Assembly (NCBI GenBank): GCA_963720265.1
Contig: CAVRET010000002.1
Coordinates: forward strand, 1,072,069 to 1,108,292
Source of the DNA: an uncultured bacterium
GTDB lineage: Bacteria > Patescibacteriota > Saccharimonadia > UBA4664
Direction: 5' to 3'
DNA length: 36,224 bases
Part shown: positions 3,241-25,807 of the stretch, piece by piece
Numbering within the stretch: the stretch's first letter is position 1
How the letters are laid out: each line of letters starts with the position of its first letter
Notes under the pieces: model-generated
What the model was told of the DNA's origin: nothing
The model's input: only the letters and a program-made list of their open reading frames with translations
Database searches by the model: none
Position numbers and translations under genes: made by a program

Positions 3241-3732
3241 ATGCGTAAGTGGTATTGGCGAGTAGTGGGGACGGTGGTGGGAATTGGCGCGGTCGCAGCA
3301 CTGGTGCTCGTGTTGCTGCCCAAGCCAATGGTACCAAGCAAAACCAGGCAGCAACTAGCATCCACGTTGATCCTGCCCACCGGCAAGCAATTCGCGGTCA
3401 ACCGTGCCACCGTGAAGTACGACAGCAACCTCAAAGTGCTAAGCTTCACCACTCATGCGTTTGGGGGCACGCTCATTATCAGCGAACAGCCCACACCGGA
3501 AAGCTTTACCGATGTACCGGCCGTTTACCAAAAAGTCACCGATCAAATGAACGACTACTATGATTTCGCCACTAGCCTTGGCACCGTTCACCTGACGACA
3601 CCGACGCAACTCAGCGGCAAGCAAACCGCTGTCATTAATGCCGCTGGTACGCTGACGTTCATAAAGCCATCAAGTAATCTATCAGCCACCCAATGGCGTC
3701 AATTCTTCACCAGTTTCCAGGTTGTAAACTAG
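3241..3732 (+). CDS. Hypothetical protein with N-terminal membrane anchor
   Basis: 163-aa ORF with a hydrophobic N-terminus; TATAAT at 3229-3234. Confidence 0.8.
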   Translation: MRKWYWRVVGTVVGIGAVAALVLVLLPKPMVPSKTRQQLASTLILPTGKQFAVNRATVKYDSNLKVLSFTTHAFGGTLIISEQPTPESFTDVPAVYQKVTDQMNDYYDFATSLGTVHLTTPTQLSGKQTAVINAAGTLTFIKPSSNLSATQWRQFFTSFQVVN

Positions 3733-3817
3733 CCATAGTGGCTACTTGCATGTTCGCAAAGCGTTCGGTACAATCAGATCAGAAATAAGGGGTATACTAA
3801 CCAAGAAGGGGATCGCT

Positions 3818-4012
3818 ATGTCGCTCACGAAAGATGATCTGAATCAAATTAGTCAAATTGTAAGGACCGAGGTTTCAGGTTTGAGATCCGATATGGACCG
3901 CATGGAAAGCCGTATAACCACGGCTATCAGCTTGCTGCAGCGCGATACTTATTCCCGCCTCGATGATCATGAGGTCCGTATCACCAAACTTGAACAGGCG
4001 ACTCCTCGTTAG
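3818..4012 (+). CDS. Small coiled-coil hypothetical protein
   Basis: MSLTKDDLNQISQIV...HEVRITKLE heptad pattern; purine-rich AAGGGGA upstream of ATG 3818. Confidence 0.7.
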   Translation: MSLTKDDLNQISQIVRTEVSGLRSDMDRMESRITTAISLLQRDTYSRLDDHEVRITKLEQATPR

Positions 4013-4091
4013 GAGCCGCGTCCAGTATTGAAAAACCGCCTGGCCTTAGGTACAATTTGCCAGTACCTTTTTAGACCGGCCGGCAAACCGT

Positions 4092-4167
4092 GGCGAGATA
4101 GCTCAGTTGGTAGAGCAGTGGCCTGAAGAGCCTCGTGTCCTCGGTTCGAGTCCGAGTCTCGCCACCA
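4092..4167 (+). tRNA. tRNA-Phe(GAA)
   Basis: 76-nt cloverleaf with GGCGAGA/TCTCGCC acceptor stem, loop CT-GAA-GA, TTCGAGT T-loop and CCA end; one U-U mismatch in the anticodon stem. Confidence 0.95.
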
Positions 4168-4191
4168 TAGCATTTATCCGTTCAACCCCAT

Positions 4192-4267
4192 GCGGGTGTA
4201 GCTCAGTTGTTAGAGCGCTTCCTTGCCAAGGAAGAGGTCCAGGGTTAGAGTCCCTGTACCCGCACCA
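4192..4267 (+). tRNA. tRNA-Gly(GCC)
   Basis: GCGGGTG/TACCCGC acceptor stem, CTTCC-TTGCCAA-GGAAG anticodon arm and CCA end; atypical T-loop TTAGAGT. Confidence 0.95.
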
Positions 4268-4477
4268 TTGAACTTATGCTTAAATATTGGACCTCTTCCC
4301 GGCAAGGGGAAGCCAAAAACGCAAAATCAATGATTTTTGCACTAATCTGTAAAAACGCTCAGAAATGAGTGTTTTTACTTTACATAAGCCATTATCAGAA
4401 GTTTGATTCCCCGAAGGGTCCTTCGGGGACGTCTTCAGAACCCTACAGGTAGCGGGCCAACTGGGCCTCCTCCTGGA
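4262..4477 (+). repeat. 216-bp non-coding repeat R1, copy 1 (putative att arm)
   Basis: GCACCATTGAACTTATGCTTAAAT...CTGGGCCTCCTCCTGGA; colinear with 5727-5942 and with the reverse complement of 12093-12308. Confidence 0.95.
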
Positions 4478-4530
4478 TATAGGTGTGGTCTATCGGTTAT
4501 TGTTCGCAAACGATATATAATGAAGGAGTT

Positions 4531-5214
4531 ATGGCTTATATAATCGTAGCCGACGAGATAAAGAAGACATTACCCGGCTATACTCCAGACCAAGCGGAGA
4601 ACTTTCATGAAGCTTCAGCCAAGCTGGCAGATAAAGCTTACTCACAAGCACTGAAAGAGCGGCCTGAGAATGCCGTAATATTGATGAGTGGCGGGGCTGC
4701 TTCAGGTAAATCAGAATATATCTCCGTTTATCTCGCAAACACTGAGGCTATAGTGCTAGATGGCACATTGCCGACATTTGAAGGTGCCAGCATTAAAATA
4801 CGCAATGCCCGTAAAGCTAATAAATCTGTTGAAGTTCATGCGATCCTGCCGTCGAGCCTACCCGTCGCATTCACAGCCTTTCTGAACCGAGACAGGAAGT
4901 TTCCAGTCGAGCATTTTTATCGGACGCACAGCAGCTCACGCAAAACCCTACTAGGGGTAGCTGGAGAATTTGTCGATGTCCCTGTAACAATAGTTATTAG
5001 CAATGGAGAGCCAACTTCGGGAATGACATTTATTAAACAAGAATTTGCAGATCGGCAACAACTCGTTGAATTCGTCAAGACCCAGCAGTATACTGAAGAT
5101 GCAATTAGAGATCTATTATGGCCAGCAGGACACTTCCAAAACCACCAGCATCTAACACCCAAGTTCAGGAGTATATGGCGGCTGTGCGTAAAGGCGCAAA
5201 CAGTGTATTTGTGA
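4531..5214 (+). CDS. Zeta-toxin-like P-loop kinase
   Basis: Walker A GGAASGKS, IVLDGTL and ADEIKKTLPGY motifs; AAGGAG before ATG 4531. Confidence 0.75.
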   Translation: MAYIIVADEIKKTLPGYTPDQAENFHEASAKLADKAYSQALKERPENAVILMSGGAASGKSEYISVYLANTEAIVLDGTLPTFEGASIKIRNARKANKSVEVHAILPSSLPVAFTAFLNRDRKFPVEHFYRTHSSSRKTLLGVAGEFVDVPVTIVISNGEPTSGMTFIKQEFADRQQLVEFVKTQQYTEDAIRDLLWPAGHFQNHQHLTPKFRSIWRLCVKAQTVYL

Positions 5215-5390
5215 TGCAAAAAAATGAAGGCTGGAGCGTGCGACCAGCAATCGAACCCGCCAAGGCAGTCATTTTTGCCTCGAAGGACGAGGCACTTCAA
5301 AAAGCCAAATCGACCGCTGAGTCGAAACATGGTGAGGTCTTCGTATTTGACCAAGCTGGTTCCCTGATTGGCCACGAGTCAGCAACCTAA
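5118..5390 (+). CDS. DUF2188-like small protein
   Basis: Pattern EGWSVR...FASKDEALQKAK...EVFVFDQAGSL. Confidence 0.7.
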   Translation: MASRTLPKPPASNTQVQEYMAAVRKGANSVFVMQKNEGWSVRPAIEPAKAVIFASKDEALQKAKSTAESKHGEVFVFDQAGSLIGHESAT

Positions 5391-5406
5391 CCTCCTGGCG
5401 TACGTA

Positions 5407-5733
5407 TTACGCTAAGGGCCCTACATTCACATTGCATGCCGGCAATCTCAGCTCCACGCCTGCTTTACGCAGTTGTAGAGCCACCGTCTTTCTATCAACC
5501 CCATACTTCGCGGCCAACTCTCGCAACGATCGGCCGGCCGCATAGTCAGCCGCTACATTCTTAATATCCATCTTCCTTCGAGCAGGCGAGAGTCGATGTT
5601 TGGGCTTCGGCTTATTCCATCGTTGATCATATTTAGCTACAACTGGGTCTTGCATCCCGTGTAGGCTCTGGTATGCTCTCTGTACTCTCGCCGCGCCTGA
5701 AAAGTTCTGAAGCTGAAGATGAAGGTGCACCAT
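5407..5733 (-). CDS. Helix-turn-helix protein, copy 1 (cassette-end gene; start codon at the att core)
   Basis: DYAAGRSLRELAAKYGVDRKTVALQLRKAGVELR HTH; paralogous to 6853-7185, with many synonymous differences. Confidence 0.75.
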   Translation of the reverse strand: MVHLHLQLQNFSGAARVQRAYQSLHGMQDPVVAKYDQRWNKPKPKHRLSPARRKMDIKNVAADYAAGRSLRELAAKYGVDRKTVALQLRKAGVELRLPACNVNVGPLA

Positions 5734-5942
5734 TGAACTTATGCTTAAATATTGGGCCTCCTCCTGGCAAGGGGAAGCCAAAAATGCAAAAACAACAAAT
5801 TTGACGTTAATCTGTAGAAACACTCAGAAATGAGTGTTTCTACTTTACATAAGCCATTATTAAAAGTTTGAGTCCCTGTAGGGTCCTTCGGGGACGTCTT
5901 CAGAACTCTACAGGTAGCGGACCAGCTGGGCCTCCTCCTGGA
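5727..5942 (+). repeat. 216-bp repeat R1, copy 2
   Basis: Same length and colinear with copy 1; contains a perfect internal 15-bp direct repeat TGGGCCTCCTCCTGG (5753-5767, 5927-5941). Confidence 0.95.
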
Positions 5943-6012
5943 GGTCAAAATATGCTACTGAGCTGTGCCCCCTAAATTTCCTGAAACACTCATTTTCTGC
6001 TATAATATACTC

Positions 6013-6189
6013 ATGCATTCTACGTCACAAAATCGAGAGAAGAACGTCAGACAAGCTGTAGCCAATGAAAAGCTTGAAGGTTTAGAGGTATCTCGCGAGG
6101 CGCTCAAGATTGCTGACAGTTACGTAGTTGGAAAAGCCTCGGCAAAGACGGTTGCAGACAAAATTCGGGCTCGTTACGGAGCACTGTAG
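6013..6189 (+). CDS. VbhA-family antitoxin of a Fic toxin
   Basis: AVANEKLEG resembles the inhibitory (S/T)xxxE(G/N) motif; lies directly upstream of fic; TATAAT at 6001. Confidence 0.8.
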   Translation: MHSTSQNREKNVRQAVANEKLEGLEVSREALKIADSYVVGKASAKTVADKIRARYGAL

Positions 6190-6785
6190 TTGGCGATCGT
6201 CGATCCATATTTCGACGATACTATTGACGACCTCAGGAACCTATTAGGCGCCAACTCATCAGAAGAACTCAAGAAGCTAGAGCCTCAAGTTGTTTTTGCG
6301 AACGAACTTGAGCTCGATTCGATAGGTATACCACGCACAAATGATCTTACTGAACTGCTATTAATCCATCGTCAGCTTTTCAAGGGCGTCTATGATTGGG
6401 CAGGTAAAATCAGGACTGTTGATATCAAGAAAAATGCCGAGGGGGCCAAATACTTCTTGGTTGTTTCGAAGATTAATGATGCAGCCAACTATGTCTTTGG
6501 TGAACTCACCAAAGAGAAGCACTTACGAGGTTTATCTAAAGAGGAGTTCATCAATCGGTTAGCTTACTTTTACGACCAATTAATTACATCCACCCATTTC
6601 GCGAAGGCAATGGTCGGGCGCAACGAGTACTGTGGAATAGGATTGCTAAAGACTCAGGTTATGAGCTTGATTGGACGCTTGTAGTGGGTAGTGAAAATGA
6701 CGAAGCCTCTCGGGTGGCCTCTGAACAGATGGATTTATCCGGTCTCGTTGCAATGTTTACGAAAATAGTTCGATCTTTAACCTAG
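6190..6785 (+). pseudogene. Fic-family toxin, frameshifted
   Basis: The N-terminal part has IHRQLFKGVYDWAGKIRTVDI. After a 1-bp deletion near 6582 the other frame reads NYIHPFREGNGRAQR...KIVRSLT* (stop 6783-6785). Confidence 0.9.
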
Positions 6786-6852
6786 CGCACAAAAGGCATG
6801 TGACCGTGTATACGAGTTGCTTTGTCAAGGGAGAGAACATGGGCTGAAGCTC

Positions 6853-7185
6853 CTATTGGCCGAGCGCACACACCCACACATTACATCCCGGCAATCTCAG
6901 CTCCACGGCTGCTTTGCGCAGTTGTAGCGCCACTGTCTTTCTATCAACTCCGTATTTTGCAGCCAACTCTCGTAGCGATTTACCGGCCCCATAATCAGCC
7001 GCCAGGTCATCAATATTAATTTTACGACGATAGAGGGAAAGACGGGGTTTGTGTAGCGGATCATCATTCCAGCGTGCAAGATATCTAGCCTCAAATGGGT
7101 CTTGCATCCCATGCAGGCTCTGGTAAGTTCTCTCCACACGCATCTTGTCTGAAAAGTTCTGAAGCCGTAGACATAGGTGCACCAT
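6853..7185 (-). CDS. Helix-turn-helix protein, copy 2
   Basis: MVHLCLRLQNFS...SLRELAAKYGVDRKTVALQLRKA; roughly 70% identical to copy 1 by eye. Confidence 0.75.
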   Translation of the reverse strand: MVHLCLRLQNFSDKMRVERTYQSLHGMQDPFEARYLARWNDDPLHKPRLSLYRRKINIDDLAADYGAGKSLRELAAKYGVDRKTVALQLRKAAVELRLPGCNVWVCALGQ

Positions 7186-7359
7186 TAGGGAATTATCGGA
7201 CGCTTCGGCGTCCTTTTCCGTGCCCGCTAATCTATAGAGAATACTCACTTCAGGGATGTGAACTTTATTCTCCTTAGTCCAAAAAAATCCGCCTGGAAAA
7301 ACGATCTGTTCACACCTAACTCTATGCTCCTGTGATATTTTGAGGAACCTGCTACCCAT
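7186..7359 (-). pseudogene. Probable C-terminal remnant of a large serine recombinase, in frame with HTH copy 2
   Basis: RCEQIVFPGGFFWTKENKVHIPEVSILYRLAGTEKDAEASDNSL-MV resembles, from recall, the C-termini of Patescibacteria recombinase-family proteins that run into tRNA 3' ends; no catalytic domain is present. Confidence 0.6.
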
Positions 7360-7407
7360 GCTGCGTGCACCGTTGTCTCAATAAACATTGGAAGCTACAA
7401 TATAGCT

Positions 7408-7707
7408 ATGAAAGAAGTACAGCCAACAAATCAAGAGCGACTAATTGCCAATATTCTCCGAGCGCATGGCGTGGTTAAGGCTGCCCTATTTGGCTCGTAC
7501 GCACGTGGCGAAGCTGGCCCTCGCAGCGACATTGATCTTCTGGTAGGCTTCCCTGAAGGAACCACTCTATTTGATGTGGTGAACATTCAGGATGACCTAG
7601 AACGGGCACTTGGTTGTAAGGTGGATCTTGTTTCGCAGCGGCATCTGAGCCCGCGACTCGAGAAACGTATCGAGCCTGATCTTAAACCGCTGGCTCTTAA
7701 TCAATGA
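7408..7707 (+). CDS. Minimal nucleotidyltransferase (MNT/MntA-type antitoxin)
   Basis: LFGSYARGE...SDIDLLV...KVDLV motif. Confidence 0.92.
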   Translation: MKEVQPTNQERLIANILRAHGVVKAALFGSYARGEAGPRSDIDLLVGFPEGTTLFDVVNIQDDLERALGCKVDLVSQRHLSPRLEKRIEPDLKPLALNQ

Positions 7708-8027
7708 CAAAACGCGACGATTCGTTTCACCTTGAAGGAATCCGAGAACACGTTCTGGCTATTCGTCAGTACTTGCCGTCCACTAAAGGAGCATATCTAG
7801 CGGACGAGAAAACGCAAGACGCCGTTCTGATGCGCTTATTAGCTTTGGGTGAAGAGGTTGACCGGCTTAGCGACGAATTTAAGGCCGATCATCCAGAGCT
7901 TGATTGGTTCAAGATAGTTGGGCTTAGAAATCGCATCGCGCATGGCTATTTTCAGGTCGACCCCGAGATTGTTTGGGAGACGGTAACAGACGATTCACTT
8001 AACCAGCTATTCAAAGTCACGGAGTGA
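7704..8027 (+). CDS. HEPN/DUF86 (HepT-like) RNase toxin
   Basis: GLRNRIAHGY (Rx4H) motif; ATGA overlap with MNT. Confidence 0.92.
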   Translation: MTKRDDSFHLEGIREHVLAIRQYLPSTKGAYLADEKTQDAVLMRLLALGEEVDRLSDEFKADHPELDWFKIVGLRNRIAHGYFQVDPEIVWETVTDDSLNQLFKVTE

Positions 8028-8242
8028 GCGCTCTAGTCTGAGTGACATTCATAGATCGAACACGGCTGACCAAGTACGTGGAAACACCGCTCTACGAGGG
8101 GGTCTTGTTAGCTGCGAACCACATTACGGACACAATACCGTACGATTGACGGCAACATGCTCTCACAATAACGCACCTGAACGGTCATAATACCGTGTCG
8201 CCACAGATACGAACATAAATAATTCGCTTGCCAAAGGTATTC

Positions 8243-8285
8243 GCCAAGGAAGAGGTCCAGGGTTAGAGTCCCTGTACCCGCACCA
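8243..8285 (+). repeat. Exact 43-bp duplicate of the 3' half of tRNA-Gly (attR-like)
   Basis: GCCAAGGAAGAGGTCCAGGGTTAGAGTCCCTGTACCCGCACCA is identical to 4225-4267. Confidence 0.95.
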
Positions 8286-8301
8286 TTTTAGATTTACAGA
8301 T

Positions 8302-8331
8302 AAGAAGGCGTCTCATTTTGGGCGTCTTTTT
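8302..8331 (+). terminator. Probable intrinsic terminator after the tRNA fragment
   Basis: Imperfect hairpin AGGCGTCTCA-TTT-TGGGCGTCT followed by a T run. Confidence 0.5.
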
Positions 8332-8431
8332 GTGTTTTCCAACTTCCATATCTGGAAGAGAGTTCGACTCCTCTCTGGGTCCTAACTTAGTAGTTCTTGA
8401 CTGCCGGTATAACCAAAGTTATACTTTAGAC

Positions 8432-8668
8432 ATGAAGACAGCAATTTCACTTCCAGATGAAGTATTTGAATCAGCCGAGCAGCTTGCAAAACGGCTAGGA
8501 AAGAGTCGCAGCGAATTGTATGCGCTTGCAATAAACGACTATCTAGATCGAAATAATGAGAGCGTTGTTCAGGAATCGTTGGATCAAGTCTATTCTCAAA
8601 ACAAAAGCCACGTTGACTCAAATCTAGGGACCATGCAAATGAAGTCAATTGCCCGCGAAGAATGGTGA
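8432..8668 (+). CDS. Ribbon-helix-helix antitoxin (ChpI/MazE-like)
   Basis: MKTAISLPDEVFESAEQLAKRLGKSRSELYALAI; overlaps the toxin start. Confidence 0.88.
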   Translation: MKTAISLPDEVFESAEQLAKRLGKSRSELYALAINDYLDRNNESVVQESLDQVYSQNKSHVDSNLGTMQMKSIAREEW

Positions 8669-9003
8669 AACGTGGAGATATATGGTGGGTAGATCTGTCG
8701 GAGCCAAGTGGATCGGAGCCTGGCTATGCGCGGCCAGTTCTGGTAATCCAAGCGAACTCTTTTAATCACAGTAGGATTTCGACTGTGATCGTAGTTGCCT
8801 TAAGTTCGAACATGGCACTCGCCGACGCACCTGGCAATGTTGTGCTCACGTCCAGACAAACCGGTCTATCAAAGGATTCAGTGGCCAACGTATCTCAGAT
8901 CCTTACCTTGGATAAGCAATTTCTTCGCGACAAATCATCCGATCTCAGCTCTAAACTCGTGCGCCAAATCGATCAAGGCCTGCACCTCGTGCTTGATCTG
9001 TAA
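8662..9003 (+). CDS. mazF: PemK/MazF-family endoribonuclease toxin
   Basis: KRGDIWWVDL...GSEPGYARPVLVIQ...DSVANVSQILTLDK. Confidence 0.93.
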   Translation: MVKRGDIWWVDLSEPSGSEPGYARPVLVIQANSFNHSRISTVIVVALSSNMALADAPGNVVLTSRQTGLSKDSVANVSQILTLDKQFLRDKSSDLSSKLVRQIDQGLHLVLDL

Positions 9004-9008
9004 ACACC

Positions 9009-9061
9009 TGATCTCAAAAGCTTGACATAAGCTCATACAGCCACCTTAAAAGGTGTTCGAC
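9009..9061 (+). repeat. 53-bp repeat R2, copy 1
   Basis: Ungapped match to 10424-10476 (38/53 by manual count), ending AAAAGGTGTTCGAC. Confidence 0.7.
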
Positions 9062-9102
9062 TGGAGACCTCTCTCGCGCACCAAGGAATTATTCAGGATG
9101 CG

Positions 9103-9133
9103 AAAGTGTTCCAGATTGGAGCACTTTATTTTT
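9103..9133 (+). terminator. Probable terminator hairpin
   Basis: AAAGTGTTCCA-GAT-TGGAGCACTTT followed by a T run. Confidence 0.55.
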
Positions 9134-9296
9134 GTGCCATACACAACGGCTTTCTCTGGGAACTTATTGCGGGCTCAGGTCAGTTGGTATGGTACAATAC
9201 TTATGCATAAGCATTAACCAAAAATAATGATAAATTCACCATACGAGATTCTTGCGTATGGCGGGTAAACTGAGTTAAGGGAGGAGCGGTATATCG

Positions 9297-9881
9297 ATGT
9301 CAGCGCAGGAGCGATACGACAACTACGCTCAAATGGCCCAGAAAATTATAACTCAGCAGCCTGCTGCAACTCCCGGTGAACAGGCTATATCACTTGCTGC
9401 GCCACAAAACCAGATTAAGGAAAAAAATACGATCCTGGTCGGAGTGCTTTTTGGGGTTGCCGTGGTGGTACTCACGTTCATCAAAGTAATCCCGGGCATA
9501 TTATTCATCCCGCTCATATTCTTTATAGTTATGCTTATTAAGTTTTACAGCATACGCCGCTATCTAGTGGTGGCAACGGACCAGCGTGTATTGTTCATCG
9601 GACTGTCTAAGGTTAACAACAAAAAGATTACTAGTATCGAGTCATTCCCGTACTCATCGGTACGTTTGGGCGACGTACAGCAACGAGGCAAGAGGAAAAT
9701 CGTTACAATTGCGACGTCGGCTGGCCGGTATGTATTTCAATTTTTTCCAACCATACTTGATCTGAACTTAGACCCGGTCCTTGCCTGCATCCAGCAGCAA
9801 CAAGCTAAGACACCAGCTGCCGTCGCGCCGACGGAAGTACCCACAAACCCACAAGCCAATGGAAATCAAAACCAAAACTGA
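9297..9881 (+). CDS. Membrane protein (2 TM plus a PH-like beta domain)
   Basis: GGAGG upstream; hydrophobic hairpin followed by YLVVATDQRVLF. Confidence 0.75.
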   Translation: MSAQERYDNYAQMAQKIITQQPAATPGEQAISLAAPQNQIKEKNTILVGVLFGVAVVVLTFIKVIPGILFIPLIFFIVMLIKFYSIRRYLVVATDQRVLFIGLSKVNNKKITSIESFPYSSVRLGDVQQRGKRKIVTIATSAGRYVFQFFPTILDLNLDPVLACIQQQQAKTPAAVAPTEVPTNPQANGNQNQN

Positions 9882-10398
9882 CAACATACTCGTGGCGACA
9901 GCCAGGCCACGATATATTTTCTTCGGTATTTATGTGCTCGCGTTTACGGGCCTTGCCATACCGTTTATCATCTACGGCCCATTTCTATTTGCCCTTTTCT
10001 TTATACTCTTGGCCATCGGAATGCTGGCATGCATCTGGGGTTATCGGCTGACGATCGACAAGCAGGCAGGCACAATAACGATTAGAAGCTGGGGTGTAGT
10101 GAGGCCATGGCCAAAAGATAGGACGATATTAATAAGCGATGTGTCTCACCTCGATACGGGCCTCGCACCCAGTGCGCCCAGTACTGAATCTCGTATTGTG
10201 TTCTACCTTGCGAACAACAAGTCCATAAAGTTCGGAATTAGCAGGGGGCATTACTATAAGACCTTTAGATGGTTTTTGTCCATAGCCACCGGTCATAGAG
10301 AATCAGGGGGTGAGTATATCATCGGTGAAGTTGCCCAGTTTATTGGGTTTAACAATCGAGACGGCCTCGGCTACACCTGGTTTCGGCCACAACTCTGA
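9859..10398 (+). CDS. Membrane protein (2 TM plus a PH-like domain)
   Basis: Two TM segments then RLTIDKQAGTITIRS; overlaps the upstream gene end. Confidence 0.72.
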   Translation: MEIKTKTDNILVATARPRYIFFGIYVLAFTGLAIPFIIYGPFLFALFFILLAIGMLACIWGYRLTIDKQAGTITIRSWGVVRPWPKDRTILISDVSHLDTGLAPSAPSTESRIVFYLANNKSIKFGISRGHYYKTFRWFLSIATGHRESGGEYIIGEVAQFIGFNNRDGLGYTWFRPQL

Positions 10399-10423
10399 GC
10401 TATCTTTTAATCCTTATCAACTT

Positions 10424-10476
10424 TGACCTCGAAAAGTTAATATAAGGCTATCAAGCCATTGTAAAAGGTATTCGAC
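10424..10476 (+). repeat. 53-bp repeat R2, copy 2
   Basis: Matches 9009-9061 and ends AAAAGGTATTCGAC. Confidence 0.7.
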
Positions 10477-11039
10477 AAGGCTAGTTAAACTCTCAGCAAT
10501 GCGGCAGCGCGGAAGGCCGCCAGTTTGTGCCGGTCCCTATGCCGTTATTGATAATGTACCTTTGGTTACTATATGGATTCGGTCCCCAGGTCGTGAAGAA
10601 GCCCAGATAGTTATTCTGATTCGAGGGGCAAGTCTCGCGGGCGGTTCGCCTTCAATTCTTGGCTGCACCGCTAGGCGTATTAGCTCCCTTAAATCGGGTT
10701 TTCCCGAAACTTTGGGATCGCCAAATCGGAATCTATTGTCACTGAACTCCTTCGATAGGGGGCGAGAATTACTATTACATTGTTTATGTAATAAGTCAAT
10801 CGTCCCTGTGTATAGAAGTACATGAGACTCTCACCCATTTTCAGATTTAGGCGACGTCAAGAAATGATTACCTTAGCGGATTGACGCTTTCTCTATCTGG
10901 GATAATTCCCGGTGCAAGCAGATGGGTAAAAGCTTACCCCTTATCAGGGATGAAATCACTCGCTCGCAAGAGATTTTAGCTATTCCTTTCCGAGACCATC
11001 AGCTCACGAAGTAAGATATGGGAGTTACAATGACCAAGA

Positions 11040-11411
11040 GTGGAGATAACTTATATCGTAATCGATGAGGTAGTTTGTTCCAGATTCGAATGCGGTCGTA
11101 GCTTTGGAGCTTATCCAAGTGGAATGGAGTCGGAGAGTGAAAGGCGCTTATGCCCCGAGTGCGGCGACTATGCTCGTACTGTGCGTAATGGCCCGATTAA
11201 ATTGATTGTAAAGATTGGCAGCGAGAAATCGTTTATATGGTTTAGAGCTTTCGATGAGTTGACCTGCGCGTATGAGCGTCTGTTCACGGTTGGCTACAAT
11301 CTTTTTGAGACTATGCCAGTAACTCCGGGTAAGCCGCGGCGGGATCTCTCTATCTGGCGCAAACCTAGCTTCAACAAAGCTCGCCGCTTTTTGAAGGCGT
11401 TTGTCGAATAG
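11040..11411 (+). CDS. Hypothetical protein with a possible Zn ribbon
   Basis: CSRFECG...CPECG cysteine pairs; GTG start. Confidence 0.5.
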   Translation: MEITYIVIDEVVCSRFECGRSFGAYPSGMESESERRLCPECGDYARTVRNGPIKLIVKIGSEKSFIWFRAFDELTCAYERLFTVGYNLFETMPVTPGKPRRDLSIWRKPSFNKARRFLKAFVE

Positions 11412-11511
11412 CTTGTGTTGATATCTCGTCTCTCTCATCACTGCTTCCATGGGTTGACACACGTGCCATTGAAGTGATTTACATTTTCATTAAAGTAGCG
11501 TATAGTTAGGT

Positions 11512-11603
11512 TGTACTTGTGGGGCTTGCCCTAGAACCGGCCAAGGTTAATGTCCTAAGTCGGAAGCAAGTACACTAAAGTACGTCCCTCTGGGGCGTTT
11601 TTT
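11512..11603 (+). ncRNA. Putative ~90-nt structured small RNA
   Basis: Promoter TTTACA(11478)-17 nt-TATAGT(11501), closing stem TGTACTTG/CAAGTACA and terminator ACGTCCC-TCT-GGGGCGT-TTTTT; no ORF. Confidence 0.55.
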
Positions 11604-11994
11604 AGTATTTCATAATGCTCTGAAAGTAATGCTGGCCTTTATCTCCAACTTTGCGAGTTACGACTCGGACACGCACGCTATCTTTTCCCACACGTGCCTC
11701 CAGGGCATGATAGGTGACTTCTATCTTCTTACCGTCGATTACTTCTTTACGAATTCGTGTCTCGAGGACCTCGTCACAGTTGTGAATGACCGGTGCGATC
11801 AGCGGCACCAATACGAGCCGATTAAAGATAGCGGCCGTCTCACGACGGTGCTGGCCCTTGAATACCAGATGCTTGAAGCCAGGCATATTGAAGTGTACTT
11901 TTGCACCAATAGCTTTTGACTCGATAGGTCGTAAAGCCATGTAAATCACCTTATATTTCGCGATTAGCTCAGCAGTCGATATTCGCTCTGTCAT
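11602..11994 (-). CDS. Putative BECR-fold (LPD3/PBECR-like) RNase
   Basis: Basic 130-aa protein with VHFNMPGFKHL and a C-terminal beta meander VRVRVVTRK...YFQSI; TGGTATAAT 6 nt upstream. Confidence 0.6.
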   Translation of the reverse strand: MTERISTAELIAKYKVIYMALRPIESKAIGAKVHFNMPGFKHLVFKGQHRRETAAIFNRLVLVPLIAPVIHNCDEVLETRIRKEVIDGKKIEVTYHALEARVGKDSVRVRVVTRKVGDKGQHYFQSIMKY

Positions 11995-12092
11995 GCACTT
12001 ATTATACCACTTTGCCAGATGAGACGAGCAACTTGCAGATTCTAGCAAGTCCACCCGTTGGAAGATTACTTATTTTTTAAAGTCACAACCCC

Positions 12093-12308
12093 TCCAGGAG
12101 GAGGCCCAGCTGGCCCGCTACCTGTAGAGTTCTGAAGACGTCCCCGAAGGACCGTATGGGGAATCAAACTTTTAATAGTGGCTTACGTAAAGTAAAAACA
12201 CTCATTTCTGAGCGTTTTTACAGATTAGTGCCAAGATGATTGATTTTGCGTTTTTGGCTTCCCCTTGCCGGGAAGAGGTCCACTATTTAAGCATAGGTTC
12301 AATGGTGC
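12093..12308 (-). repeat. 216-bp repeat R1, copy 3 (inverted)
   Basis: The reverse complement aligns with 4262-4477 over its whole length. Confidence 0.95.
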
Positions 12309-12327
12309 ACCATAGCTCTTATGCATA

Positions 12328-12353
12328 AAAAGAGACTCAGCTGAGTCTCTTTT
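12328..12353. terminator. Perfect 26-bp palindrome (bidirectional terminator or operator)
   Basis: AAAAGAGACTCAGCTGAGTCTCTTTT. Confidence 0.6.
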
Positions 12354-12414
12354 GTTATTGAGTGCGCCGCATACCTATTCGTACGTGCAACCCTGGCAGG
12401 TGTATAATTAAGCC

Positions 12415-12591
12415 ATGAAAGACCATGTATACACAGCAGTAATTGAACTTGACACCGCGACGGGTTTTTATGTAGCCTATGTTCCCGACCTCCCAGGCGC
12501 TCATACTCAGGCCGAAACCCTCGAGGAACTTCAAGAGAACTTGTTGGAAGTCGTTGAGCTTGTTGGGGTAGGAGAAGAATATGAAGAATAA
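12415..12591 (+). CDS. hicB: HicB-family antitoxin (short; absent from the ORF track)
   Basis: Manual translation gives MKDHVYTAVIELDTATGFYVAYVPDLPGAHTQAETLEELQENLLEVVELVGVGEEYEE*. Confidence 0.85.
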   Translation: MKDHVYTAVIELDTATGFYVAYVPDLPGAHTQAETLEELQENLLEVVELVGVGEEYEE

Positions 12592-12826
12592 CAATCTCGA
12601 ACTCGAATACCAGGCCGTCTTCCAGGAAGAGACTGACGGCGGATTCTCTGTCTGGGTGCCCGACCTGCCGGGGTGTGCATCTCAAGGCGAAACCCTTGAG
12701 GAGGCGCTGGAAAACATCAAGGAGGCGATCGAACTCTACCTTGAAGATTCGGATGTCGAATTCGAAAAACAGGATTTCGACTATAGGCGCCAATTCGTAG
12801 TGCCCGTCAAACTGGCCCATGCCTAA
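12581..12826 (+). CDS. hicB: HicB-family antitoxin
   Basis: GGFSVWVPDLPGCASQGETLEEALENIKEAIELYLE. Confidence 0.92.
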   Translation: MKNNNLELEYQAVFQEETDGGFSVWVPDLPGCASQGETLEEALENIKEAIELYLEDSDVEFEKQDFDYRRQFVVPVKLAHA

Positions 12827-13046
12827 ACTTCCGCAGCTTTCAGGAGCAGAGCTGATGAAGGCATTACGACGACTTGGTTTTGAAGTTGTTAGCCAAAAGG
12901 GGAGCCATGTGAAGATGAAACATGCTGATGGTCGAGTCGCAATTGTCCCAAACCACAAGCTCATAAAGCCTGGAACTCTGAAAAAGGGAATACTAAATCC
13001 GCTAGGAATAAGCGTGGAGCAAATAGTGGGAGCCATCAAAAAGTAA
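12819..13046 (+). CDS. hicA: HicA-family mRNA interferase toxin
   Basis: LGFEVVSQKGSHVKMKH...VPNHKLIKPGTL. Confidence 0.92.
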   Translation: MPKLPQLSGAELMKALRRLGFEVVSQKGSHVKMKHADGRVAIVPNHKLIKPGTLKKGILNPLGISVEQIVGAIKK

Positions 13047-13234
13047 CCCCCTCACTGGCGGCGAAATACACGATGTCTCCGTTTACAGGAGCAAGTCCAA
13101 GATCCGCCAATTTCTCGTGCATCAGGTACAAACTTAAGCATAAGCGGTTCCACTTATAATCCAGTAGGCACACCAGGAATAATCAGCGTTCGCAAATACG
13201 GGGCCAAAGGGCTTCGTTTTGATATAATTTGGCC

Positions 13235-13534
13235 ATGCAAGACGCTCCCATATTACCGCAGCAGTTGGACTATACTTTTAAGGCACCAATCGGTGTGAAC
13301 GTCAAAGGCTCTATCTGGTCCTGCGTGGAAATGCCTAATTCGGCAGAGTTTTTTGGGACAAGGAGATCGGTAAGGGGTGATATTGAAATCGATGGGATTG
13401 AATTGCCCAACGTAGGATTCATGGTCACTGGCACTGGGGGACATATGATATCTATAAGCCAAAAGTTACGGCAGCAGTTGAACAAGGACATTGGTGACGA
13501 GGTAACAGTCCTTCTTATACGCCGTGTCAAATGA
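13235..13534 (+). CDS. DUF1905-like protein
   Basis: FFGTRRSVRGDIEIDG...MVTGTGGHMISISQKLRQQLNKDIGDEVTV. Confidence 0.75.
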   Translation: MQDAPILPQQLDYTFKAPIGVNVKGSIWSCVEMPNSAEFFGTRRSVRGDIEIDGIELPNVGFMVTGTGGHMISISQKLRQQLNKDIGDEVTVLLIRRVK

Positions 13535-13555
13535 TAATCTCGTCAAATATAATTC

Positions 13556-13990
13556 ATGGGTAAAATGACTGCTCAAAACGACAATTCAGTCAAAGACTAT
13601 GTTACTTCACTTGATGATGAGCAAACCGTAAAAGATTGCAGGGTGCTCATTGAAATGATGCACCGCATCAGCGGGCATGAGCCAAAGCTGTGGAATGTGG
13701 GCACGATCGGCTTTGATACCTACCATTACAAGTACGACAGCGGGCGCGAAGGCGATGCCGCAACCATTAGTTTTTATCCAAGAAAAGGCAAGATAACAAT
13801 ATATTTAATGGACGGCACGGTCCGTTACTCCGAATTACTGGCTCGCTTAGGCAAACATACTACGAGCCGGGTTTGCTTATACATCAAGCGGCTCAGTGAT
13901 ATAGAGCCGCCAATACTTGAACAAATCGTGCAGCAATCTTATGCGTACGTAAAGTCCCAAGATGGGCACATGCACCGAGCATTAGAGTAA
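13556..13990 (+). CDS. DUF1801-like protein
   Basis: PKLWNVGTIGFDTYHYKYDSGREGD...LGKHTTSRVCLYIKRL. Confidence 0.85.
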   Translation: MGKMTAQNDNSVKDYVTSLDDEQTVKDCRVLIEMMHRISGHEPKLWNVGTIGFDTYHYKYDSGREGDAATISFYPRKGKITIYLMDGTVRYSELLARLGKHTTSRVCLYIKRLSDIEPPILEQIVQQSYAYVKSQDGHMHRALE

Positions 13991-14022
13991 ACGGCTGAGG
14001 CCTTTTGTCTTATAGTATGGGC

Positions 14023-14574
14023 ATGAATCTGATACTAATATACGGCCCGCCGGCGTCCGGAAAGCTCACTGTCGCCAAAAAGTTGGCGACCATAACCGGT
14101 TACACGCTGCTAGATAATCATCAAGTAACAGACTATCTGCCCCAACTATTTCCGAGTGGGCTGCCGGACCTTGAAGTCGCGGGGGCAAAGCTAGGAAGAA
14201 AGATAAGACTGCTCATATTCGAAGCCGCAGCAGCAAACAATGTAAGTTTAATCACAACCTTTGCCCCATTAGTTGATGGCGCCCATGATTTCATTCGAAG
14301 CATTAAATCGAGCGTAGAGGATGCGGGCGGTAAGCTCTACTTGGTACAACTCATTCCGAACCAGCAGGCGCTGGATAGTAGAGTGGTTGGCGAGTCTAGA
14401 GAAGGAGGAAAGGCGCAGACGGTTCAACGACTACGCGAATTAGCCGACCGTTATCCGGTGATGTTTGAAAGATTTCCAGATTTAGAGCATTTAGTTATCA
14501 ATAACTCGAGTATGCAGCCAAATGAAGTAGCTCGGCTAATTTACGAACATTACAGCTTAGCCAAGTCAGCGTAA
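14023..14574 (+). CDS. P-loop kinase (shikimate/NMP-kinase-like)
   Basis: LILIYGPPASGKLTVAK...LLDNH. Confidence 0.82.
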   Translation: MNLILIYGPPASGKLTVAKKLATITGYTLLDNHQVTDYLPQLFPSGLPDLEVAGAKLGRKIRLLIFEAAAANNVSLITTFAPLVDGAHDFIRSIKSSVEDAGGKLYLVQLIPNQQALDSRVVGESREGGKAQTVQRLRELADRYPVMFERFPDLEHLVINNSSMQPNEVARLIYEHYSLAKSA

Positions 14575-25735: not shown

Positions 25736-25807
25736 GGAATTATTAACCTAACAGCATGAGAGCCTCCGGGCGGGCCGGAGTTGAATGCTCTCAGCCGGCC
25801 CGAAGGC

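Follow-up and report, generated by a model that had tools for sequence, protein, structure and literature searches.

Several described systems place mobile elements next to tRNA genes or stack small cassettes at one chromosomal site. Tycheposons of Prochlorococcus integrate at tRNA genes, carry partial tRNA repeats and cargo, and their newcomers push older ones deeper into the island; 910 of 937 use tyrosine recombinases and a minority use large serine recombinases (LSRs), the elements are larger than those considered here, and many of them replicate (bioRxiv 10.1101/2020.12.28.424599). A paper on Enterococcus (PMC6222049) is related to the staphylococcal cassette chromosome elements discussed below. 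For serine integrases, a published rule places the motif of the zinc-ribbon domain 5 bp further outward in attP than in attB (PMC3783163). Here we analyze a stretch of 36,224 nucleotides (hereafter the window) from an uncultured bacterium of the Saccharimonadia lineage UBA4664 (assembly GCA_963720265.1, contig CAVRET010000002.1), in which an 8.9-kb low-GC island, at 4268-13175, occupies the 3' side of a tRNA-Gly(GCC) gene. It is probable that this is a composite island, produced by repeated site-specific insertion at the 3' end of tRNA-Gly by elements of a tRNA-targeting LSR clade.

Eight junctions (A-H) divide the island into seven segments (Table 1), and the GC content is 0.46-0.48 over about 3500-14500, against 0.58-0.62 upstream and 0.556 in the genome as a whole. 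The preliminary description of this DNA had proposed a stack of cassettes behind the tRNA, marked by copies of the tRNA end GCACCA at 4262, 5727, 7179, 8280, 9078 and 12303/12307. These positions are as claimed. The hexamer occurs 32 times in the window where 22.2 +/- 5.3 copies are expected, and 3 of 100 shuffles reach 32, so that the bare hexamer is no evidence and it is the extended repeats that count; the extended repeats around the copies are significant. The sizes reported for the first two units (1465 and 1452 bp) are also correct, and so is their common plan, in which a core is followed by a repeat named R1, by cargo unrelated between the two units and by a helix-turn-helix (HTH) gene on the minus strand. 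The observation of a cassette stack at tRNA-Gly is therefore confirmed by the extended repeats and by an empty site in a relative, G005; as to its interpretation, the serial insertion at the tRNA end and the attP anatomy stand, whereas the integron-like mechanism and the view of HTH as a gene of its own have to be abandoned.

The proposed sequence of events is the following. In elements of this clade, the attP crossover lies inside the 3' part of the recombinase open reading frame (ORF), and integration cuts the gene in two: the catalytic part is left beside the tRNA, reading antisense into it, and the opposite end of the element receives the last ~110 codons, which encode the HTH and begin right at the core. 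Each attP arm mimics the tRNA, with the T-loop GTTC placed 5 bp further from the crossover. The two R1/HTH units would be recombinase-less derivatives with unrelated two-gene cargo; both attP arms are kept in them, one where the HTH piece begins and the other in the first ~20 nt of R1. From A to C they form a tandem pair between attL-type Junction A and attR-type Junction C, with an attP-type junction in the middle, and cassettes of other end types, which would be older, lie further out, up to Junction H. The insertions would have been made by an LSR supplied in trans, and stacking may proceed by recombination of an incoming attP with the occupied site. Growth by insertion behind tRNA-Gly, with its 3' terminal ...CACCA restored every time, had already been suggested from the sequence alone and is upheld.

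HTH2 is identical at 96 of 110 positions (87%) to residues 470-579, the exact C-terminus, of P0004, a protein of 579 aa from another sample that has Resolvase, Recombinase and zinc-ribbon domains; for HTH1, identity to this C-terminal stretch is 72%. Against longer proteins the HTH query gave two matches, P0004 and P0005 (657 aa, with the same domains plus the HTH), and both are LSRs. The HTH piece, previously taken for a separate cassette gene, is instead the last ~110 codons of an LSR gene. The reverse complement of the core, ATG-GTG-CAC, forms the start of both HTH1 and HTH2, so that these ORFs begin exactly at the junction. Among proteins of similar length 15 free-standing HTH homologues were found, many of them with a (M/L)V(R/H)L..LQN start behind unrelated leader residues, and the HTH is present in 3 of 53 genomes of the order, including the one studied here.

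The same genome contains seven full-length LSR genes and one truncated copy, as had been anticipated, and five of the seven ORFs run antisense into tRNA genes (Pro-cgg, Arg-cct, His, Val-tac and Leu-gag); the distance between a sixth and a tRNA-Met is 700 bp. In an alignment (A2) these LSRs match P0004 and P0005 collinearly as far as ...GS(D/E)xxx(L/M)V, beyond which they translate antisense tRNA (GLEPPT), where P0004 and P0005 read into the HTH. Read on the opposite strand, the (L/M)V codons give CACCA(A/T); the attP core therefore lies inside the LSR ORF, and as a consequence integration at a tRNA detaches the HTH tail. Both products are seen together in an 8.4-kb element at tRNA-Arg(cct), which has the LSR beside the tRNA and, at its far end, an HTH piece of 90 aa whose start lies on the core; its interior is occupied by a Replic_Relax gene and one for an Mrr-type nuclease. 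The unsplit attP form was read from the truncated copy at C2:866029-867441 (L016:6029-7441), an LSR without the catalytic N-terminus but with an in-frame HTH tail, and not from DNA of the P0004 type, which was sought in Joint Genome Institute (JGI) metagenome contigs with no match. This unsplit copy is located in the chromosome between tRNA-Val(tac) and an array of HTH units.

The arrangement extends far beyond this genome. A scan of one genome per species gave 80 related LSR loci (L058-L137); among the 72 with at least 400 nt past the match, a convergent tRNA or tmRNA gene is present in 59 and the ORF reads into it in 57. The LSR-into-tRNA neighbourhood is also found at four of 11 metagenome loci, and one of the 80 loci, L122, encodes an unsplit LSR of 685 aa with C-terminal HTH repeats. 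By record title, the LSR clade with the tRNA-overlapping ORF belongs mostly to Actinomycetota and Ca. Saccharibacteria. Saccharibacteria live on actinobacterial hosts, so that an exchange of elements between host and epibiont is possible.

The HTH piece itself gives few functional clues. A scan of a collection of genome contigs with the HTH alignment gave zero matches, and the sequence found nothing below E 0.2 in the PDB. The mean predicted local distance difference test score (pLDDT) of its predicted fold is 67.9, with a C-terminal three-helix bundle at ~86, and a Foldseek search of the PDB returned 0 matches at E<=0.001 and generic HTH domains at best; judged from the model, the piece is a generic HTH with no assignable role. 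The ratio of nonsynonymous to synonymous substitution rates (dN/dS) between HTH1 and HTH2 is 0.28, which shows past purifying selection, whether on a part of a whole LSR or on a free piece. Moreover, the conserved QN of the HTH alignment is encoded by the GTTC motif and may reflect a constraint on DNA as much as on protein.

Attachment sites were compared in a set of 78 occurrences of CCA-N5-CTTATGCTTAAA (at most two mismatches) from this genome and 19 family loci, in which one site is counted twice because of overlapping loci and some of the 65 sites not adjacent to a tRNA are chance matches. At tRNA-adjacent sites the T-loop GTTC begins 24 nt before the final A in 12 of 13 cases; in tRNA-Gly of the window, the T-loop (GTTA) begins at the same distance. 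At the non-tRNA sites GTTC is found at -29 in 26 of 65, and at any other position in one to three. GTTC stands at -29, counted from the A of CCA, in each of the four P arms of the window, those of B (5732), C (7184), E (9083) and H (13175), and the attP anatomy described for 5732, where an HTH arm, a core and an R1 arm meet, is thus borne out. On the opposite side, GAAC ends exactly 41 nt after T-loop G53 in 32 of 59 LSR loci of other genomes, a control word giving no peak; it is a mirrored T-loop at the attP register, and it is also present in this genome's three autonomous elements of the same subfamily. The outer motif lies 5 bp further from the crossover in attP than at the tRNA, as expected for an LSR, and by symmetry the crossover would fall at about tRNA positions 71/72, inside the 8-nt GCACCATT common to the window junctions, the stretch to which sequence comparison brackets it.

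CTTATGCTTAAA was also considered as an extended -10 promoter. One copy lies 17 nt after TTGCCG near tRNA-Ile; a terminator hairpin directly follows most sites, and for this reason a promoter is rejected as its main role.

Relatives were compared at the same locus. The tRNA-Phe/tRNA-Gly pair is kept in 17 of 26 family genomes, and eight loci were compared. The empty site that serial insertion predicts is carried by G005, where the sequence behind tRNA-Gly reads GGAATTATC and continues into a terminator and a DUF1801 gene, which begins 48 bp from the tRNA, the upstream genes being those of the window; in the window the DUF1801 gene lies 9.3 kb from tRNA-Gly, just past Junction H. An attL-type junction (A) and attR-type junctions (C and H) flank the inserted DNA, and G005 preserves the corresponding attB; at the level of sequence comparison this proves insertion at tRNA-Gly. 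Two other genomes have different inserts at the same gene: in G015 a recombinase-less insert of 2.5 kb encodes a SEC-C-motif protein and ends in a window-like P arm, and in G024 (L207, G024:C1:512500-527000) there are a HicB 83% identical to that of the window and a broken HTH remnant. At the remaining five loci the queries used detected neither an arm nor an HTH.

The flank GGAATTAT follows about 14 of the 46 tRNAs of this genome (by eye) and is found at the closing end of the Arg element and of the two Met elements as well; the simplest reading, although not a certain one, takes it for the native right arm. TTAGGGAATTATC, at Junction C, is the flank type seen after unoccupied tRNAs, hence the attR-type assignment of that junction, and the right sides of C and H are both of the GGAAT(T/A)ATC type. 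GGAATTATT directly follows CCA at many tRNA genes, including tRNA-Cys in the window (25736-25747), and could be a native tRNA flank signal or a second right-arm type. As an exact 12-mer, CCAGGAATTATT is present in 20 of the 26 family genomes, the control giving 2 in total, and the native-flank reading is uncertain because this 12-mer also clusters in some relatives.

The clearest example of the system in this genome is an array behind tRNA-Lys(ctt) (G000:C2:530847-539643), with 12 sites in 8.8 kb and no HTH ORF. Each of its junctions consists of a ~30-nt arm, the last 12 nt of the tRNA, CTTATGCTTAAA and a hairpin, and they delimit about 11 cassettes of 0.5-2.4 kb, most of which have their genes on the tRNA strand. 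Between G000:C2:530860 and 537500 a TATGAT/TATCAT-like box was seen by eye after each junction hairpin, 7-10 nt before an ATG, which suggests that each cassette brings its own promoter, from which a leaderless or short-leader mRNA would start. One unit is located behind tRNA-Met, and a further array, with an exact tRNA-Val(tac) tail, comprises four HTH units whose cargo is HicAB, BrnTA, a GNAT protein and a PIN/MazE pair. Across the family, CCA-N5-CTTATGCTTAAA with at most one mismatch is present in 24 of 26 genomes, a reversed control giving one match in total, with 25 matches in this genome, 17 in G005, and 11 each in G009 and G022; family arrays adjoin tRNA-Lys, Asn, Leu-caa and Gln. In five Saccharibacteria genomes from other families that contain related LSRs the motif was not enriched (0-4 matches against 0-3 in the control); the spacer in the pattern used there exceeded the true one by a base (N6).

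Two ORFs of 160 aa, at L015:11510-11992 (C2:856510-856992) and C2:535930-536412, have identical starts (over the first 70 residues); by eye they were read as IS200-type transposase genes, and each lies in a different cassette array. A reading of the cassettes as IS200/HUH elements was dismissed since the junction hairpins are not conserved in sequence.

Table 1. Features of the tRNA-Gly island and its borders (window positions)
Feature	Position	Strand	Description
tRNA-Phe	4092-4167		ARAGORN
tRNA-Gly(gcc)	4192-4267	+	ARAGORN; left (B) arm of attachment site
R1a	4262-4477	+	216 nt, from the last six tRNA bases; core GCACCATT, P' arm N5-CTTATGCTTAAA
Junction A	4267		tRNA joined to P' (R1a); attL type
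Zeta-toxin-like P-loop protein, unit 1	4531-5214	+	PF06414, E 1e-7
DUF2188 protein, unit 1	5118-5390	+	Pfam
HTH1	5407-5733	-	108 aa; detached LSR C-terminal piece, start codon on core
Junction B	5704-5754 (5732)	+	attP-like: P arm of HTH1, core, P' arm of R1b
R1b	5727-5942	+	216 nt, 89% identical to R1a
VbhA antitoxin, unit 2	5965-6189	+	Pfam
Fic gene, unit 2	6190-6785	+	one frameshift just upstream of the HPFxxGNGR motif
HTH2	6853-7185	-	110 aa; detached LSR C-terminal piece
Junction C	7156-7199 (7184)	+	HTH2 P arm (GTTC at -29) joined to TTAGGGAATTATC
Nucleotidyltransferase (MNT) and HepT ribonuclease, segment 3	7408-8027	+	Pfam
Junction D	8243-8287 (8285)	+	exact 45-nt copy of tRNA-Gly 3' half with TT; B-type arm
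RHH antitoxin and MazF/PemK toxin, segment 4	8433-9003	+	Pfam
Junction E	9055-9093 (9083)	+	tRNA-Leu-like P arm (GTTC at -29) joined to AGGAATTATT
Two predicted membrane proteins, segment 5	9297-10398	+	family unassigned
Junction F	10416-10476	+	truncated copy of Leu-type P arm
150-aa ORF	11602-12054	-	weak LPD3 match; cargo beside inverted R1c
R1c	12093-12308	-	inverted third R1 copy, 94% identical to R1a
Junction G	12283-12332 (12303-12312)	.	two head-to-head P' arms around palindromic core GGTGCACC
HicB, HicB, HicA, segment 7	12415-13046	+	Pfam
Junction H	13147-13184 (A of CCA 13175)	+	P arm (GTTC at -29) joined to GGAATAATC; distal island end
DUF1801 gene	13556-13990	+	native flank; 72%-identical G005 homologue starts 48 bp after tRNA-Gly

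Beyond the core and the P' arm, R1a is made of ~190 nt of structured non-coding DNA. Its predicted minimum free energy is -73.5 kcal/mol, with z values against shuffles of -5.2 on the plus strand and -3.1 on the minus strand, and one hairpin keeps its pairing through a compensatory two-sided change between copies a and b. R1 also contains a second CTTATG motif, which is inverted, and close to its end the GTTCTGAAG arm motif is present as the reverse complement. All three copies of R1 lie inside the window and none was found elsewhere in the genome; a 22-nt invariant block of R1 had zero matches in viral contigs. In the preliminary description R1 was a recurrent cassette flank; as a whole it was found nowhere in the 26 family genomes, where only its first 23-35 nt match, and it is the first ~20 nt that form the widespread site motif. 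An Rfam search over 3900-13600 found only the two tRNAs, and a sub-threshold match to R1c (17.8 bits, the gathering score being 219 bits) was judged to be due to chance. The HTH regions at 5428-5734 and 6877-7186 are 76-78% identical.

The junctions beyond C are not all of the type first assumed: the later ones belong to other cassette families, and one R1 unit is inverted. The copy of GCACCA at 9078, in particular, had been counted as a tRNA-Gly end and is instead part of a tRNA-Leu-like attP arm, since with GTTC at -29 Junction E cannot be a tRNA remnant; its arm recurs at four other places on contig C2, near tRNA-Leu genes. The right flank of Junction D is 82% identical to the flank after tRNA-Leu(cag) elsewhere in the genome; the tRNA copy at this junction runs from the anticodon onward. 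Junction G would fit an inversion through GGTGCACC, that is, sites recombined in the wrong orientation, and its partner junction is missing from the island. At the distal end, a 45-aa remnant ORF (13036-13173, minus strand) starts on the core of Junction H. A 246-aa ORF at 12299-13039 on the minus strand was discarded as spurious.

The cargo of the first four intervals, as identified by Pfam, agrees with what had been described. Four modules qualify as type II toxin-antitoxin pairs: VbhA/Fic (with Fic broken), MNT/HepT, RHH/MazF and HicB/HicA; in the zeta-like/DUF2188 pair the toxin side alone has a family match. Between D and E lies a complete RHH/MazF cassette that belongs to another end family, and between G and H a complete HicBBA cassette. 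The RHH/MazF pair is 86% identical at the nucleotide level, over 613 nt, to a pair in G024 located ~870 nt downstream of tRNA-Leu(gag). G024 belongs to another genus, and with this pair (L158, G024:C1:550000-568500) window-type cargo is found at tRNA sites across genera.

Recombinase genes were searched for throughout the genome. The window contains none, in agreement with the earlier statement that no intact integrase is present in it: all LSR matches and the single tyrosine-recombinase match map elsewhere. Accordingly, the window units do not encode an enzyme with Resolvase, Recombinase and zinc-ribbon domains, whereas their autonomous relatives do.

Several observations weigh against insertion by LSR-clade elements and have to be set beside the evidence above. 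This genome has no LSR located at tRNA-Gly and none that retains this HTH type intact, so that the helper is hypothetical. Canonical serine integrases recombine attP with attB only, and stacking needs attP to recombine with attL or attR. LSR genes are present in 16 of 26 family genomes and 10 have no LSR match; one genome, G017, is 100% complete and has arrays and no LSR match. The P' arm CTTATGCTTAAA of the recombinase-less cassettes differs from the mirrored T-loop of the autonomous elements, although by eye the register and four of five bases agree. R1 past its first ~20 nt is unique to this genome. Long copies in tRNA register are typical of tyrosine-integrase islands and not of LSR arms; an attP arm of an LSR would not leave behind the 45-nt tRNA copy of B type seen at 8243-8287. 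Finally, there are signs of decay: Fic is frameshifted, Junction F is truncated and an R1 unit is inverted, and the tRNA-Val array has a broken HTH piece in two of its four units.

Decay is also the starting point of the alternative that survives best, which we nevertheless regard as unlikely. The junction motifs, CTTATGCTTAAA with its hairpin and GGAATTATT, would be terminators or processing signals of the host at tRNA flanks, and the array would be inert debris. In fact, CTTATGCTTAAA and GGAATTATT follow many ordinary tRNAs in this genome and in the family, hairpins with T-runs come after the motifs, several genes and arms are decayed, and some genomes have arrays and no LSR. However, 65 of the 78 motif sites are not beside a tRNA and many of these have a conserved attP-type arm; arrays reach 12 sites with one or two intact genes each, unlike the outcome of random decay; and recombinase-less units of one plan with different cargo are found at tRNA-Gly in three genera.

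A second alternative assigns the movement of cassettes to the host's Xer-type tyrosine recombinase, in the manner of integrative mobile elements exploiting Xer (IMEX) or of pdif modules, acting on 28-bp sites composed of the tRNA tail, a 6-nt spacer and a right arm TTATGCTTAAA. The conserved right arm does begin 6 nt after CCA and resembles the XerD-arm motif, the motif is family-wide and includes genomes devoid of LSRs, and this genome has one tyrosine recombinase (a Phage_integrase match at C2:194920-195447, ~880 kb away). What decides the matter is symmetry: no site has an inner dyad or a left arm resembling the right arm, as a Xer site, with its two 11-bp arms around a 6-bp spacer, should. 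Moreover, left arms vary with the tRNA and are yet conserved over ~30 nt, the offset between -29 and -24 is not explained by Xer binding, and left arms run on into LSR coding sequence. The Xer/dif reading, quite improbable on these grounds, was rejected because the dyad is absent at all sites.

It is very unlikely that the two R1/HTH units arose by tandem duplication of one unit, with cargo swapped later by homologous recombination and no serial integration. Their near-equal sizes would agree with it, as would their common ends and the higher similarity of R1 (89%) than of HTH (76%), which fits gene conversion. Against this, the cargo is wholly unrelated with boundaries that are sharp at the site arms, HTH2 is nearer to a foreign LSR (87% at the amino acid level) than to HTH1 (72%), other genomes show different cargo at tRNA-Gly, and the 12-site tRNA-Lys array is left unexplained. 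That the repeats are an assembly artefact has practically no probability: nothing was found in its support, the copies have diverged (76-94% identical), the contig spans 1.1 Mb, and diverged repeats in a low-GC island bracketed by junctions that match the empty site of G005 are incompatible with it.

Insertion by LSR-clade elements thus accounts for the island better than these alternatives. A more far-reaching proposal, which we put forward tentatively and with clearly less than even confidence, is that the family possesses a working tRNA cassette platform, with T-loop-reading LSRs, a built-in HTH switch, minimal cassettes shuffled in trans and unlimited repeated capture. The T-loop would serve as the zinc-ribbon-domain motif, which would make nearly any tRNA 3' end a possible target. 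Exchange of the HTH for a tail translated antisense from the tRNA would switch the enzyme between an integrating and a resident form. Arrays would grow a dozen deep, each cassette consisting of a ~30-nt arm, the core, a ~20-nt arm, a terminator, a promoter and one or two genes, and the tRNA-side product would keep a competent site, allowing capture to repeat as in integrons but with another enzyme class.

If insertion by LSR-clade elements holds, a clade of serine integrases would have a testable target rule (a T-loop half-site, crossover at ~71/72 and attP motif 5 bp out), and a change of ~12 nt in the core could direct it to any tRNA gene. This would be useful, serine integrases being major tools of genome engineering. 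Integrated and excised elements would make different proteins, without and with the HTH tail, possibly a new way of setting the direction of recombination. Bacteria with reduced genomes (0.6-1.7 Mb in the relatives) would stock accessory genes by a route other than those of integrons and SCC elements and functionally close to them. Independently of the platform, the arrays show how bacteria with small genomes collect accessory genes, as recombinase-less toxin-antitoxin cassettes at tRNA genes. A literature search for a split LSR gene, T-loop mimicry by att sites or arrays of this kind found none, in a coverage that leaves out most subscription journals, and the family-wide system appears to be possibly undescribed.

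Parts of this organization are found in several known systems. In SSV1-type integrases of archaeal viruses attP also lies within the ORF, and integration at a tRNA leaves gene pieces at both ends, as found here; those enzymes are tyrosine recombinases of which a large part is split off, whereas here a bacterial serine enzyme loses the HTH alone. In mycobacteriophage integration-dependent immunity attP lies in a gene whose product has its C-terminus changed, and in the accretion of streptococcal integrative and conjugative elements and cis-mobilizable elements (ICE/CIME) recombinase-less elements stand in tandem beside autonomous ones, both as here; these two systems differ in that repressor genes are affected and tyrosine recombinases are used, and to our knowledge neither forms arrays of many small cassettes.

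Integrons share with the island an array of small cassettes, mostly of one or two genes, at one site, rich in toxin-antitoxin pairs and devoid of recombinase genes, and on this likeness the array had at first been called their analogue. No IntI is present, since the sole tyrosine recombinase is ~880 kb away and none is in the window, and no attI was found, nor any attC, the imperfect inverted repeat that in integrons ends each cassette and is recombined as folded single-stranded DNA: the junctions are composed of a tRNA-like arm, a core and a conserved 12-mer, with the attP/attB geometry of LSRs. The hairpins that follow them vary in sequence and look terminator-like and, unlike in integrons, each cassette seems, judged by eye, to come with a terminator and promoter-like boxes of its own.

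The tycheposons, the nearest described builders of tRNA islands, resemble the system described here in tRNA integration, partial tRNA repeats, tandem arrays and cargo; a split recombinase gene, minimal recombinase-less arrays of 12 sites and T-loop mimicry are absent from the part of their account that was available. Staphylococcal cassette chromosome (SCC) elements (SCCmec, psi-SCC and composite islands), the nearest cassette system based on LSRs, likewise combine an LSR (Ccr), insertion at a rebuilt gene 3' end, recombinase-less cassettes that share att sites, and tandem stacking. SCC elements target the 3' end of rlmH, whereas here the targets are the 3' ends of many tRNA genes; in addition, attP here lies inside the recombinase ORF and the cassettes are far smaller (0.5-2.5 kb). 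On the whole this is serial integration of LSR type, closer to SCC elements or tycheposons than to integrons.

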